Shown: positions 49,436-57,451 of the stretch, piece after piece | How the letters are laid out: every line of letters begins with the position of its first letter | Position numbering within the stretch: position 1 is the first letter of the stretch | Assembly (NCBI GenBank): GCA_964019425.1 | Contig: OZ025793.1 | Coordinates: 434,001-498,000 of the forward strand | From: Flectonema sp. DT1601 | Taxonomy: Eukaryota | Length of the DNA stretch: 64,000 nucleotides | Direction: 5' to 3' | The notes under the pieces: generated by a model | Databases searched by the model: none | Told to the model about the DNA's origin: nothing | The model's input: the letters and a program-made list of their open reading frames with translations, nothing else | Position numbers and translations under genes: made by a program

Positions 49436-49507
49436 TGGAGAATGAGGGGTTCGAACCCTCGACCTCCCGTATGCAGAACGGGCGCTCTACCACTGAGCTA
49501 ATCCCCC
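49436..49507 (-). tRNA. tRNA-Ala(UGC)
   Basis: GGGGGAT-TA-GCTC AGTGGTA GAGC-G-CCCGT TCTGCAT ACGGG-AGGTC-GAGGG TTCGAAC CCCTC-ATTCTCC-A; full cloverleaf with the G3:U70 Ala identity pair. Confidence 0.93.
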
Positions 49508-49520
49508 GATAAAAGAAGAC

Positions 49521-49817
49521 TTTTCTTTTCTTTTGGTTACACTCGTCTGTGCTACCAAACTCTTTGTTTTTGTTCTTTTCACTTCTATGTTTTGTCTTTC
49601 TTTTATACTTTCTTTTTGACTTAAGTCTGACAAATTGGAAAACACGGGAAACATAGGTAGGCTCCGCCTGAGGACGTAAGAAGAGCGGCAACGGAAAAAA
49701 ATAAATGGTCACGCGTCCTTGAAATTGGACACACGAAGCTAATTCGGTTACCATTCCTACCATCGATAAGGAAAACAAAGAGTCGAGCATATAACTAGAG
49801 CGGTGGTCAAAGACCAC
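49521..49817 (-). repeat. 3' terminal direct repeat of the retroelement
   Basis: About 8 differences from 57133-57428; both end in the palindrome GTGGTC-AAA-GACCAC. Confidence 0.95.
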
Positions 49818-49994
49818 TTGAACAGCCCGAAGGCCTGCCCTCAAGAGAAATTTATAAGGAGAATAGGAGAAGAAGGAGAAAGGAGTATTGGAAGGGACAC
49901 TGAGACAACACCGAAGGTGATGTGCAGTTACCCAACCAGGAGATGATTGATAATGATGAAAATACTAAATATTGATAAAACACTTAAATGGCGA

Positions 49995-52013
49995 CTACGT
50001 GTCACCTACACAATTCCAAAGTCTCAGGTTGGATGCTTGTTCCATCCACCTGATCAACATCGCTACTGAAGGAAGCCAGCTGGTGGCAAAGATTGAGCCA
50101 AGACTGGCAGGAATGCCGTTGATGAGGATTAGATCACTTGATCGGTCCCATTTGCCTGTCAATGTAGAAAAGCCAAGGATTTCATATCTGGCTGCATCGA
50201 GTTTCTGTGATGGACAGCCTACGAGTAGGTGGAGTTGGTTGGATGGAGCGCTATGGCAGAATGGACATATGATGGCTTTCCGCCAGTTTTGCATCAGTGG
50301 ATGACACCCCGTTCTAAAATTCGCAATTCTGATTTCATCGCTCCTTTTCATGTCGGGAGGATATTTTATCGCGGCACCTTTGACGGTGTTTTTATAGCAA
50401 GTGTAACCAATTCTGTTCCAAATGTCCTTCGTGATCCCCCTCCTCACTCGGGATTTGTGATAGAAGAAGGATCCTCGGATTGGGATTTGAGGGAGGTATC
50501 TGTTGTGAGCCGATTTCTTAGCAAGTTCATCAACTTCGTCGTGTGCTTCTATCCCCATGTGAGAAGGGATGAATTGAAGATGTACTTTCATACCGCAGTT
50601 CCGTAGGTTCTCGAGGATGCCGAGGGATCTGGTGTTTCTCTGTTTACACCTGCCACCCTTCAACTCGTCCAACAATGATTTTGAGTCGGTATAGATTCTG
50701 ACTGACTTAGTTAGCCCGTCTTTCTGTACCTTCCAGTTTAAGTAGTTTGCCGCATTTTTCAAGGCATGTTGCTCAGTTCTATAGCTGCAATCCGCACGCA
50801 CTAATCTGGTCGCATGAGCACGTTTCTTTCCGTCTCGTGACTTAGCAATGAGAGCCGCGCCTGACGCACTCGAAGAGTATGAACCGTCACAGTTGATCAC
50901 CATGTCCACCGGAGGAAGTGTCGCATTGTAGGTAAGGAATTTCTCCCTGTCCACTGCGGGATCAGGGGATTTTGTAAAACCGCAGCTGTTGCTGATTTGA
51001 ACATTGTCCGAAGCAATCCAAGGTTTGATAGAGTTAGGTTGAACGATCCCCACGCTTTCTAGTTGACCTTCAGAACGGGGAATGAGGCCACCCCAGAAGC
51101 TTTGAGGCGATGCGAGTGAGTTGGTGGCCGGCACCCAGGTCATGGCTTTGTACCTGAAATAGGCAATTTTAGTCTGCTTTTCGATTTGTCTTTTAAACGG
51201 TAAGATGTCGGCTTCCCAAAGGAGCAACTCCCTCGGAGTACATCTGCTGCATCCTGTTACGAGTCTCGCTATTTTTCTCATCTCGAAGTCGATAGCATCC
51301 GTTTTATGCTGGTTAAGCAACCAACCAAAGCTGTCCAGTGCATAGGAAATCCTCGCTGTTACGTACAAGTTTTTAACCATCTTTAGGGTCTTGTAGTCCA
51401 ATTCATATGGCTGGAGGCACTGCAGAAGGGAGATCCCTTTCTTCAGTTCGTCGTGTATTTTCTCTAACTGTTTATCAAACCTGAGCCTGTTATCAATGTA
51501 AACACCCAGATATTTCACTGAGTCCGTGATCGGCAGTAGGAAGGCAATTTTAATTTTCGCTTTGACATTCATCTCGTCGTGGATGTTCAACATCAGTAAA
51601 TCTTCTAATTCTTGTTGAGTCCTAATGGGTTTCCCCTCTACTTCGAGGATCGTTTCACCACTCAGTAAAGTGGGCCTTGTCGTCGTCGTGTTGATCACGC
51701 TGTCTAGATCAAAATAGTCAATATCTAACGAACGTACTTCCAGTGATTTTGAGAATAAGAGTTCGCGGTCGCTAGTATCAGTCAGGGTTACTTCTTTCGA
51801 TTGAATATCCATTTTCAGAGCGCAAGTCTTGGAGACTGAAAGTGCCATGTCATTATCACGGCACCACTTGTCAACGATGTCAAGTATTCGTTGAGCGTTT
51901 GAGATTGCTTCGTCCATGGTCGAGCCAAATACTGCACAAGCGGTGTCGTCTGCATACAGTGCGGTCAAAGTCGTTTCCTTCTCTTGTGAGAGAATCTTAC
52001 ACAGATCGTCAAC
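49995..52013 (-). CDS. ORF2 3' part: RT (YADD, KYLG), RNase H, CCHC knuckle
   Basis: VDDL...LYADD, KWCRDNDMALSVSKT, KYLGVYID; RNase H INCDGS / TEQHAL / YTDSKS / IPSHMGI..DEVDELAK; CPFC-x8-H-x4-C. Confidence 0.95.
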   Translation of the reverse strand, partial: VDDLCKILSQEKETTLTALYADDTACAVFGSTMDEAISNAQRILDIVDKWCRDNDMALSVSKTCALKMDIQSKEVTLTDTSDRELLFSKSLEVRSLDIDYFDLDSVINTTTTRPTLLSGETILEVEGKPIRTQQELEDLLMLNIHDEMNVKAKIKIAFLLPITDSVKYLGVYIDNRLRFDKQLEKIHDELKKGISLLQCLQPYELDYKTLKMVKNLYVTARISYALDSFGWLLNQHKTDAIDFEMRKIARLVTGCSRCTPRELLLWEADILPFKRQIEKQTKIAYFRYKAMTWVPATNSLASPQSFWGGLIPRSEGQLESVGIVQPNSIKPWIASDNVQISNSCGFTKSPDPAVDREKFLTYNATLPPVDMVINCDGSYSSSASGAALIAKSRDGKKRAHATRLVRADCSYRTEQHALKNAANYLNWKVQKDGLTKSVRIYTDSKSLLDELKGGRCKQRNTRSLGILENLRNCGMKVHLQFIPSHMGIEAHDEVDELAKKSAHNRYLPQIPIRGSFFYHKSRVRRGITKDIWNRIGYTCYKNTVKGAAIKYPPDMKRSDEIRIANFRTGCHPLMQNWRKAIICPFCHSAPSNQLHLLVGCPSQKLDAARYEILGFSTLTGKWDRSSDLILINGIPASLGSIFATSWLPSVAMLIRWMEQASNLRLWNCVGDT

Positions 52014-55554: not shown

Positions 55555-56976
55555 TCAGTTTGAGTCCATTTCAACATCAGCCGTTTCAGTAGTATCGGTT
55601 GGTTCTTCAGCACAGTGTCGCTTCAAATCACCAGATATAACTGGACCCTTGCCCGGGTTGAAGGTCGGCCCCAATTTGACCGGCTTTTCTTTTTTAGTTT
55701 CCTTGTTGATTACAAGGTACGCATCTTTGCCCATGTCGACGAAGCTTGATGATGGAACCGATTCAGAGATTGCAATTAACGTTTTGTTGCCACCCTTATG
55801 AAAACTAGCCACAATTGTGTGACTCCACTTGTATGCGTGCAACAGGTGATCGCTGATCTGTTGCGTCGTGAACTTCTTAATAGCCAGTGATTTAATTATA
55901 AAACGCTGACCAGTCGGCAGTGCGGGTTTCAGAGAATCCCCGAGTGATTCTCTCACTTTTTGAGTAAACCCGGGTTGAACTTTCAGCCCAAAGCACTCTC
56001 GGAACTTCGTGATGTAGAAGCTACCTTTGATTGCTGAAAGAACTGAAAGTTTGCCCAGCACCGCTTTGAAGCCCAAGTCCTTAACGAACTGAACTGTGTT
56101 CCAAGAGTCTTGGCCATTAGACCAAGATGGGTTTCTGATGAATAGATCTCTCTTCTCACTGGAGGTGTCGCTGTTGTTGTATTCCAGAATTTCAGAGATT
56201 CTGAAGCTTGGCACACGTATCGCCATAGATGTGTGCATATCGCATTTTTTAAATCCGAAGGGCGATGTCTTCAGCTCCCACTTTTTAATTAATTCTTTCA
56301 CCTTAGTGGTGAGAGTGCTCTCTGCTGATTTACTCCAGTCTTGTACGAATAGAACTGGGTCTGGCTGTGGTGGCTCGATGGTGTCTTCTCTTGCGGCAGT
56401 GAAATCTTTGCCACAAATCGGGGTGACAAATACCCTACGAATGACGCAGGTTCCGCACTTCTTTACGACTGGAAGTGCGACTGGGACTGTTGTTTTAAAC
56501 AGTTTAGATTTAGAGATGGCAGCCCAGTCGCCCTTCGTTCGTGTTTGCTTCAGTGCTTCATAATCAGCCTTTGAGCTGATGAGCACGAGTCCGTCCGAGT
56601 TGTTTTTGGAGGCATCGATTGCTTCTGAGAATTTAAGCGTAGGTGTTGCTTTAGCCCACGCTGCGTGAATGTACCACTCTGGCAGAGTGGGTTTCTTGTT
56701 GTTGGTAGTTGGTGTCGGGCCTCCATCATTTCCATCCCTCACCGTGCTCGCCGCTTCCTGTCGTTGTCCCCCGGACTCCTTCCCCTTCCTCTCTTGCTCT
56801 GTCGTCTTTCTCTTTGACGACTCTCCTTGTTTCACGCCGGAGTCCTCCGTCAGCTGCTCCAGCACTCTCATCGTGAGAGTCAAAACCCTCCTTCTCTTTT
56901 CTTCTCCTGCTAGCCCTTTCTCCACTTCTTGTACTAGCCGCATCACATCCAAAAGCAGCTCCTTACAACTGCTCAT
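55555..56976 (-). CDS. Retroelement ORF1 (473 aa; N-terminal coiled coil, no recognised domain)
   Basis: Long ORF between the 5' repeat and ORF2; ATG preceded by TTTTCTGACAG. Confidence 0.85.
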   Translation of the reverse strand: MSSCKELLLDVMRLVQEVEKGLAGEEKRRRVLTLTMRVLEQLTEDSGVKQGESSKRKTTEQERKGKESGGQRQEAASTVRDGNDGGPTPTTNNKKPTLPEWYIHAAWAKATPTLKFSEAIDASKNNSDGLVLISSKADYEALKQTRTKGDWAAISKSKLFKTTVPVALPVVKKCGTCVIRRVFVTPICGKDFTAAREDTIEPPQPDPVLFVQDWSKSAESTLTTKVKELIKKWELKTSPFGFKKCDMHTSMAIRVPSFRISEILEYNNSDTSSEKRDLFIRNPSWSNGQDSWNTVQFVKDLGFKAVLGKLSVLSAIKGSFYITKFRECFGLKVQPGFTQKVRESLGDSLKPALPTGQRFIIKSLAIKKFTTQQISDHLLHAYKWSHTIVASFHKGGNKTLIAISESVPSSSFVDMGKDAYLVINKETKKEKPVKLGPTFNPGKGPVISGDLKRHCAEEPTDTTETADVEMDSN

Positions 56977-57132
56977 TATAGTTTTATGTCTGTCAGAAAA
57001 CCCGCACAAAATCGACTCTCACCAGGTAATGGTAGGAAATCAATAAAGTACAGAAACAGAAGTACAGAAAGTACAGAAAGAATTTCTTCTTCTTTTCTTT
57101 TCTTTTCTTTTTCTTTCTTTTTACTTATTTCT

Positions 57133-57428
57133 TCTTTTCTTTTTTTGGTTACACTCGTCTGTGCTTCCAGACTCTTTGTTTTTGTTCTTTTCACTTCTTT
57201 GTTTTGTCTTTCTTTTATGCTTTCTTTTGATTTAAGTCTGACAAATTGGAAAACACGGGAAACATAGGTAGGCTCCGCCTGAGGACGTAAGAAGAGCGGC
57301 AACGGAAAAAAATAAATGGTCACGCGTCCTTGAAATTGGACACATGAAGCTAATTCGGTTGCCATTCCTACCATCGATAAGGAAAACAAAGAGTCGAGCA
57401 TATAACTAGAGCGGTGGTCAAAGACCAC
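57133..57428 (-). repeat. 5' terminal direct repeat of the retroelement
   Basis: Matches 49521-49817. Confidence 0.95.
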
Positions 57429-57451
57429 AAAAAAAAGATCTACCGAGAGAG

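Follow-up and report, generated by a model that had tools for sequence, protein, structure and literature searches.

A young two-ORF LINE from a probable diplonemid lies on the minus strand of the window (the whole stretch of DNA analysed, 64 kb) and, on balance, appears to insert some 12 nt in front of tRNA genes; the repeat upstream of it, which resembles an LTR, is probably another copy, truncated at its 5' end and produced by repeated insertion at that position. The features of the region are as follows.

Whole element region, minus strand: APE, RT and RNase H domains, no integrase or protease (Pfam)
49436-49507, minus strand: tRNA-Ala(TGC) gene, the likely target landmark (ARAGORN; Rfam RF00005, 65.5 bits)
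49508-49519, minus strand: 12-nt spacer from the tail to tRNA position 1, containing a weak TSD candidate (sequence)
49520-49534, minus strand: (AAAAG)3, the 3' tail of the full-length copy (sequence)
49535-49994, minus strand: 3' UTR, 460 nt, ending in the downstream repeat (49535-49817, 283 nt)
49995-52017, minus strand: 3' half of ORF2, with RT from YVDD on, RNase H and a C-terminal Cys/His motif (Pfam RNase_H, RVT_1)
52018-53592, no strand assigned: insertion of 1,575 bp with terminal inverted repeats of ~190 nt (94-96%) and ATAT duplicated at its flanks
52548-52909, plus strand: 28S (LSU) rRNA fragments within the insertion (Rfam RF02543)
53593-55488, minus strand: 5' half of ORF2, with the 2A-like motif, APE endonuclease and first part of RT (Pfam Exo_endo_phos, RVT_1)
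55387-55413, minus strand: 2A-like motif GDVERNPGP, immediately upstream of APE (translation)
55555-56976, minus strand: ORF1, 473 aa (translation)
57041-57082, minus strand: spliced-leader (SL) remnant, the true 5' end of the element (motif search; SL table in PMC3795323)
57083-57146, minus strand: A-rich tail, 64 nt, of the upstream 5'-truncated copy (sequence)
57147-57428, minus strand: upstream 'LTR', the final 282 nt of the 3' UTR in another sequence variant, beginning at a 6-bp hairpin
57429-57438, plus strand: A8 run in the outer flank, with a weak TSD candidate (sequence)

The element is a two-ORF LINE, in which ORF1 is followed by an ORF2 with 2A, APE, RT and RNase H. APE and RT in a single ORF, a simple-repeat or A-rich 3' tail and the lack of an integrase together identify it as an APE-type non-LTR retrotransposon. 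The original prediction of an APE-RT-RNase H element without integrase or protease was borne out by the Pfam search, but it had overlooked ORF1, the 2A motif, the SL remnant and the 1,575-bp insertion. ORF1 is in frame with ORF2 and is ended by a single TGA. Aligned to the intact protein P0001, the two halves of ORF2 join exactly across 52018-53592, with 625 of 631 residues identical in the 5' half and 667 of 673 in the 3' half (P0001 residues 633-1305). The family is young and multi-copy: its ORF2 cluster has 37 members, one identical 1305-aa ORF2 is found on 6 contigs, and one identical ORF1 on 7. The copy described here runs antisense to the gene cluster around it.

GDVERNPGP fits the 2A motif GD(V/I)ExNPGP (PMC3708506), a likeness that makes it a putative ribosome-skipping, 2A-like motif. 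Other families have homologs of ORF1, and one Flectonema transcript cluster carries such a homolog together with one of ORF2. ORF1 itself returned no Pfam family, no usable Atlas match and no Foldseek match at E <= 0.001; its structure model (mean pLDDT 56) gives a weak prediction of an RRM-like domain at residues 204-289, where the best VIA match, the PARN cap-binding domain (Z 8.2, rmsd 2.2, 72 aligned), is a weak hint only and further RRM proteins appear at Z 6-7 amid unrelated rows.

The closest relatives that carry a name come from the diplonemid Flectonema. Like Ingi and L1Tc (of T. brucei and T. cruzi, also euglenozoan hosts), the element has a 2A-like motif before APE, followed by RT, RNase H and a C-terminal Cys/His region. 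It departs from the Ingi clade, a single-ORF group without ORF1 (PMC3708506), in its 473-aa ORF1, which is conserved in Flectonema; the presence of ORF1 and 2A together is relevant to the idea that 2A took the place of ORF1. A quick RT tree (1 of 68 rows left out for short alignment) joins the family to unnamed APE-RT-RNase H elements that have a single ORF and, in several cases, 2A (SH-aLRT 83), and no named Ingi or L1Tc, I or NLTR-A is among the matches. Architecture and homologs thus support the earlier proposal of an undescribed Ingi/I-like family, as judged from sequence and with an RT tree that holds no labelled Ingi reference. The RT phylogeny suggested alongside that proposal, in the form of this quick tree, sets the Dictyostelium RTs far from the family as unrelated. 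An orthogroup of D. papillatum labelled 'Tbingi protein' (OG0000838) comprises 76 proteins. A metagenome scan yielded 68 loci, all 24-42% identical and too distant to inform on tRNA neighbours (0/68) or an SL 10-mer (0/68); a long direct repeat was found in 1/68.

The 5' end of the element is marked by the spliced leader. Positions 57041-57057 reproduce exactly the 16-17 nt at the 3' end of the euglenozoan SL exon, as tabulated in PMC3795323 (1 match in 64 kb, 0 mismatches), and within 57041-57082 this exact SL 3' end is preceded by partial repeats of the SL end; a translation of the SL end is also present at one other locus, P0324. The motif almost certainly originates from the SL. Partial leaders are known in DNA at the 5' ends of retroposed dinoflagellate mRNAs, sometimes in tandem and depleted before an internal AG (PMC5585692), and partial leaders are associated with LINE/LTR loci in flatworms (PMC12582326); in Hydra, the SL is carried by ~30% of TE reads (PMC12220107). 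The resemblance to the dinoflagellate and flatworm relics lies in partial SL in DNA at retroposed 5' ends, the difference in that the element with the SL at its 5' end is here an autonomous LINE of a euglenozoan, as seen in at least 2 families. L1Tc has found the opposite solution, with an unspliced RNA that lacks the SL and a 5' end formed by the Pr77 promoter/ribozyme (PMC5814959). Rfam gave no ribozyme match in the window, and a home-made descriptor for HDV-like ribozymes, run without a positive control, found none; the SL remnant instead suggests that the 5' end is spliced.

The direct repeats (49520-49817 and 57134-57428) had been described as two ~297-bp copies, ~97% identical, and this description stood: the alignment of 298 columns contains 7 substitutions and 3 gap columns. 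Their interpretation as LTR-like terminal redundancy fails. Set against the members listed for the clusters (15 of 37 and 15 of 18), this copy has 4 private amino-acid changes in ~1,777 codons (ORF2 S122 and N960; ORF1 V48 and A466), from which ~0.4-0.6 differences are expected between repeats made from a single template; the 7 observed are too many for the age of the copy (Poisson P ~2e-7 to 3e-6, rising to 2e-4 if 6 private changes are assumed and to 0.009 if 12 are). Each repeat has its own tail (64 nt for the upstream copy, 15 nt for the full-length copy), and the SL remnant, where the element really begins, lies downstream of the upstream repeat. The letters of the upstream variant are shared with P0324 and those of the downstream variant with P0173 and P0364, so the repeat differences are subfamily variants. 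Divergence, tails and the variants found elsewhere all speak against two repeats made from one template, as expected of an LTR or terminally redundant retroelement; the upstream repeat very probably derives from a different template, and the notion of a repeat that is a terminal feature of the element is not supported.

At other loci, the same 3' end adjoins elements of other families. P0324 reads from the 3' end through an A-tail and the SL-end translation into the 5' UTR and ORF1 of another family, just 44% identical in ORF1; P0173 reads from the 3' end and tail into residue ~535 of the ORF2 of a third family; and in P0338 the 3' UTR runs into another ORF1. Since these read-through ORFs join the 3' end and tail to parts of other families, copies stack head-to-tail. 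The three protein-read junctions were detected through running into ORF1 or ORF2, which favours a 'stacked' outcome, and P0324 may instead show a repeat that belongs to the second family itself.

Could the upstream 3'-end copy nevertheless travel with the element, as true terminal redundancy, act as a promoter, or be a 282-nt non-autonomous element? Such a head module is quite improbable. Both 3' ends so far read before an SL are the same variant (2/2, vs 0/3 of the others; p = 0.1 by hand), as a shared head module would also lead one to expect; the element, antisense to its surroundings, needs some source of transcription; HeT-A provides a precedent, using the 3' UTR of its upstream neighbour as promoter (PMC4700185); and the 3' UTR folds better than its shuffles (z = -2.38). 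However, trans-splicing at the SL site would strip the upstream repeat from the mRNA, the repeats are too diverged for one template, and the two loci are unlike in tail length (64 nt vs ~15 nt) and in SL junction (partial relics at the former, none at the latter). The same 3' end, moreover, adjoins the middle of ORF2 in P0173 and is missing directly before ORF1 in P0364.

A second template does not in itself imply a second insertion. In an end-to-end template jump, a full-length SL-capped RNA would be copied, followed by the tail of a second RNA, with a stop after 282 nt at the hairpin; the upstream repeat would still represent a second template, and repeated use of one site would not be required. 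Tail-to-element junctions have 0-3 nt between the parts and no TSD in 3/3 cases, the end of the upstream copy coincides with a 6-bp hairpin, and template switching has been reported for the L1Tc RT, as have tandem copies (PMC5814959). The best outer match found, a 9-nt TSD candidate with 1 mismatch, would also fit; this candidate, already noted in the original prediction, is present, but has low complexity and a one-base offset. Arrays in which copies at a single target follow one another head-to-tail and look like terminal repeats are known from Drosophila, in the R1 arrays that form through re-insertion and in HeT-A/TART arrays, which are telomeric, unlike this element. R1 copies are spaced by a 14-bp TSD (PMC2718515), and the lack of any TSD between the stacked copies here is equally well explained by a template jump. 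What a jump leaves unexplained is the presence of two tails at equal distance from tRNA-like genes; we regard it as possible but rather unlikely, and lean towards sequential insertion over a one-event jump.

Sequential insertion at one site presupposes a preferred target. The same-strand tRNA-Ala neighbour of the original prediction was confirmed, with a spacing between the gene and the (AAAAG)3 tail of 12 nt; the 13 bp given earlier was a coordinate difference. The second tRNA-adjacent site is P0364, which reads from the 3' end and tail through 4-5 codons into a tRNA-like stretch on the same strand, 12-15 nt beyond the tail as inferred from the protein translation. Under a fuller tRNA profile, this stretch ranked at the top of 6.5 million windows and its score was reached by 0/20,000 shuffles and 0/7,680 real stretches; a strict 14-position profile gave a modest result (reached by 139/20,000 shuffles and 39/7,680 real stretches), and permissive tRNA compatibility did not single it out (34/40, vs 39-40 for a true tRNA and up to 38 in the background). 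Three of its 7 acceptor pairs are unable to form. Given these modest or imperfect scores, the stretch may be a pseudogene or the head of a SINE. P0364 nonetheless lends the proposed tRNA targeting moderate independent support, and on the strength of two sites, at 12 and 12-15 nt, the family probably targets tRNA genes.

That this is an ordinary dispersed LINE, with a tRNA neighbour by chance and a repeat that arose just once, through tandem insertion, local duplication or faulty assembly, is very improbable. Several hundred element-derived proteins in five clusters do offer many chances for a tRNA neighbour, and the second tRNA-like site is imperfect; against this, P0364 was not chosen for tRNA and yet shows the same strand and distance, and the variant letters at other loci rule out simple local duplication or collapse artefact.

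A parallel by description is Dp_NLTR-A, which inserts 2-6 bp upstream of tRNAs (PMC5006619). It is likewise a non-LTR element with ORF1, APE, RT and RNase H, but differs in host supergroup and in distance (12 nt here), and no SL or 2A is described for it. Dictyostelium TRE5-A is also a two-ORF non-LTR element upstream of tRNA genes; it belongs to the L1 clade, lacks RNase H, inserts ~44-54 bp upstream and carries an internal B-module repeat, and the traits that define TRE5 (L1-clade RT, no RNase H, opposite orientation at ~50 bp) were not found here. Excerpts of the literature on Ingi and L1Tc make no mention of tRNA targeting, and those covering site-specific elements of Euglenozoa name SL RNA genes or MASP pseudogenes as targets. 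Should the -12 preference hold, the targeting of tRNA genes would have arisen independently once more, here in an Ingi-like lineage with RNase H and within Euglenozoa.

Insertion may then proceed as follows. Element RNA would receive the SL by trans-splicing, as host mRNAs do, and target-primed reverse transcription would copy it, a step suggested by the SL 3' end in DNA at the element's 5' end here and by a translated SL end at one other locus. Because the remnant begins right after the internal AG of the SL, the splice acceptor of the following round may come from the copied leader, which would leave partial relics in a stack; RT slippage is the alternative. An element protein would recognise a site at a set distance from the tRNA gene, possibly through the Pol III machinery, and integration would occur with little or no TSD and with the 3' end facing the tRNA. 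A later insertion at the same position would displace earlier copies upstream, creating mixed-family head-to-tail stacks. Such an SL-defined 5' end shows a way for a LINE to exploit polycistronic transcription and trans-splicing, and stacked LINE 3' ends that mimic LTRs are a warning. A broader scheme is unlikely: a diplonemid-wide clade of two-ORF 2A LINEs homing to tRNA position -12, in which the SL is a self-renewing 5' end replacing Pr77, the stacked 3' end is a promoter, and a functional LTR equivalent is rebuilt by serial insertion.

In the flank, a GC-rich ORF (57515-58954) has no Pfam family, no exact-sequence match in the protein collection and no Atlas match. The 3 sequencing runs listed each contained 5-6% of words and included no RNA run; contigs covered scattered short pieces, and those listed showed no joints or informative loose end.

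The RT of this copy was subsequently broken at its YVDD motif by the inverted-repeat element, so that an intact RT cannot be made from it. The insertion is likely a non-autonomous DNA transposon and may be Sola-like (4-bp AT-rich TSD, GAG ends); its ATAT flanking duplication can alternatively be parsed as a TA duplication. Its 28S rRNA content comprises a strong RF02543 match (52548-52854, E 4.3e-40) and a weak piece (52864-52909), and an inverted-repeat element carrying 28S rRNA is a candidate origin of the ~3,600 dispersed 28S pieces reported in Diplonema papillatum.

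The element is a two-ORF LINE on the minus strand, lying beside the only tRNA gene in the 64-kb window, in which long ORFs are nearly all on one strand, a pattern familiar from euglenozoans.

Features of the element
49436-49507, minus strand: tRNA-Ala(TGC), 12 nt past the element's (AAAAG)3 tail
49520-49817 and 57134-57428, minus strand: direct repeats (298 alignment columns, 7 substitutions, 3 gap columns)
52018-53592: non-autonomous inverted-repeat element of 1,575 bp, interrupting ORF2 exactly at the RT YVDD codons
55488-55557, minus strand: ORF1-ORF2 gap (TGA, a C, then 22 open codons leading to the ORF2 ATG and the 2A motif)

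Along the minus strand, ORF1 is preceded by 3' UTR sequence (282 nt), an A-rich tail (64 nt), a spliced leader (SL) remnant and a further 64 nt; ORF2 is followed by a 460-nt 3' UTR, a 15-nt tail, 12 nt, and the tRNA. The original prediction of two ~297-bp, ~97% identical repeats beside a same-strand tRNA-Ala is borne out, with the spacing corrected from 13 bp to 12 nt, and its weak, low-complexity 9-mer (one mismatch) is the best outer target site duplication (TSD) found. ORF1 (473 aa) is closed by one in-frame TGA and ORF2 begins 23 codons past it in the same frame, so that read-through is possible. As predicted, APE, RT and RNase H domains are present, and a domain search of the element returned no integrase or protease match. 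A 2A-like motif at the ORF2 start, before APE, agrees with that in PMC3708506; in P0190, a related protein from another locus, an ORF1 tail is joined in frame to 2A-APE. The proposed Ingi/I-like affinity fits the 2A, APE, RT and RNase H of ORF2, but not the additional ORF1, since Ingi clade elements are described as having a single ORF (PMC3708506). A weak RRM-like match hints at an RNA-binding role for ORF1; two distant relatives from an ORF1 profile search, P0359 (E 7.6e-23) and P0365 (E 2.1e-5), belong to no Pfam family and may represent a wider ORF1 type.

The ORF2 halves match an intact 1305-aa relative up to residue 633 and from residue 633. The intervening insertion has terminal inverted repeats (measured once as 198 nt at 94% and once as 184 nt at 95.7%) and flanks with ATAT duplicated (or a TA duplication); a 269-nt contig of sequencing run X1 matches part of its interior with zero differences. 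It contains 28S rRNA fragments, making it a candidate carrier of the 28S pieces that are reported as scattered in D. papillatum. At another locus, P0351 carries a C-terminal extension past ORF2 residue 1177 like a DNA-transposase fragment, presumably akin to pogo/DDE proteins, which points to a further DNA transposon insertion, there within a sister family. DNA transposons are described as absent from trypanosomatids and present in Bodo and Perkinsela (PMC12278014), and D. papillatum has them (PMC10161547), which agrees with a host outside the trypanosomatids.

The repeats had been read as LTR-like terminal redundancy. Among the members listed (14 others plus the representative for ORF2, 14 others for ORF1), this copy has two private amino-acid changes in ORF2 and two in ORF1, or ~0.1% per nucleotide; two 282-nt repeats of one template should therefore differ at ~0.4-0.6 sites, whereas the observed count is 7 (P ~1e-6, rising to 0.009 with the most generous of the assumptions tried). 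The LTR reading was rejected on this one-template test, and a functional head module, by analogy with HeT-A (PMC4700185), is improbable. N-terminal extensions relative to the reference occur in 14 of the 142 family proteins examined, and four of these 14 (P0324, P0173, P0338, P0364) contain the element family's 3' UTR.

Junctions read from translations of related proteins at other loci
P0324: 3' UTR, tail, SL, then a second family's ORF1
P0173: 3' UTR, tail, then ORF2 of a third family, entered at residue ~535
P0338: 3' UTR running straight into another ORF1, no tail
P0347: fifth extension; truncated copy preceded by a stretch of lysines that likely represents an A-tail

P0324 has the variant letters of the upstream repeat; P0173 and P0364 have those of the downstream one. 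From these shared letters and the junctions we conclude that 3' ends are stacked before other copies whatever their family or truncation point, and stacking is the likely source of the LTR-like redundancy. The junction proteins were picked because they read into ORF1 or ORF2, and P0324 may instead show the second family's own repeat; both 3' ends preceding an SL share one variant (2/2, vs 0/3 of the others). Tandem arrays of site-specific LINEs are already documented (PMC2718515).

The SL remnant, marking the true 5' end, is an exact 16-mer (57041-57056), the sole match in the window even with up to two mismatches permitted (a criterion reached in 10/100 shuffles; expected exact matches ~6e-5). 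Several of the euglenozoan SL exons in the table of PMC3795323 end in this same sequence, which starts directly after the SL's internal AG; here it is preceded by partial repeats of itself. The translated SL end in P0324 sits exactly between the A-tail and the second family's 5' UTR, the only such match in 365 proteins (22/200,000 shuffles give one anywhere); the proteins P0317 and P0318 appear to begin at the residue expected for the final SL codon. SL relics are reported in retroposed DNA of dinoflagellates (PMC5585692) and at flatworm retroelement loci (PMC12582326), and ~30% of Hydra TE reads carry an SL (PMC12220107). In contrast, L1Tc RNA is described as unspliced and without SL (PMC5814959).

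The predicted tRNA targeting gains a second site from P0364, which came from the ORF1 profile search with no tRNA criterion and was assigned to the element family by 97% identity. Past its tail, 4-5 codons are followed by residues fitting canonically spaced A and B boxes, with all D-stem and anticodon-stem pairs, 4/5 T-stem and 4/7 acceptor pairs. A permissive test did not set P0364 apart. With a codon-summed profile built from the window's tRNA, it ranked first among 6.5 million windows at 30 positions (20.3 bits; reached by 0/20,000 shuffles and 0/7,680 real stretches), and scored only 13.1 bits at 14 positions (139/20,000 and 39/7,680). We interpret this sequence as derived from a tRNA and perhaps degenerate; it lies 12-15 nt from the tail on the same strand, which matches the arrangement in the window. 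Targeting is probable, judged from two sites. The element resembles a tRNA-targeted non-LTR type with an Ingi-like ORF2, although NLTR-A is placed 2-6 bp from tRNAs (PMC5006619) and TRE5 ~44-54 bp away in opposite orientation (PMC5911963), versus 12 nt here.

In the scenario we find most likely, SL-trans-spliced RNA would serve as template for target-primed reverse transcription, with the tRNA gene setting the position, perhaps through a Pol III factor, and with little or no TSD; later insertions there would build mixed head-to-tail stacks. The main rival, a template jump copying both templates in one event, accounts for the junctions equally well. Among five tail-bearing 3' ends read, a small and biased sample, two face a tRNA(-like) gene and three another element, as serial insertion at one site predicts.

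The closest named relatives are from the diplonemid Flectonema neradi (44-54% over the query for ORF2, 42% for ORF1), where both homologs stem from one transcript cluster, which makes a diplonemid the likely host. Identical ORF2 occurs on 6 contigs and identical ORF1 on 7, and five ORF2 clusters have 37, 101, 42, 74 and 26 members. A quick ML tree was built from 67 RT regions (68 chosen, one dropped); in it, the element families and Flectonema sequences intermix in one clade (SH-aLRT 99), which groups weakly (SH-aLRT 83) with single-ORF APE-RT-RNase H elements, far from two Dictyostelium RTs. The family is real, multi-copy and apparently undescribed: the literature searched, with most subscription papers and Repbase outside it, yielded no report of a diplonemid LINE that targets tRNA genes or is headed by an SL. 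For D. papillatum, PMC10161547 describes many annotated retroelement ORFs, a rigorous TE analysis as outstanding, and an orthogroup of 76 'Tbingi' proteins.

At the outer flank, a GC-rich (~60%) plus-strand ORF (57515-58954, 479 aa), low-complexity with a cysteine cluster near its C-terminus, had no match in Pfam, clusters or Atlas; it may be a host gene or another mobile element, and at an empty site would be the tRNA's immediate upstream neighbour. Elsewhere, six 1,603-bp units stand in tandem at 7217-16146 (the first ORF encodes a papain-family cysteine protease with I29 propeptide), and about ten 324-bp units, 97-98% identical, lie at 39765-43027 within long ORFs open in several frames.
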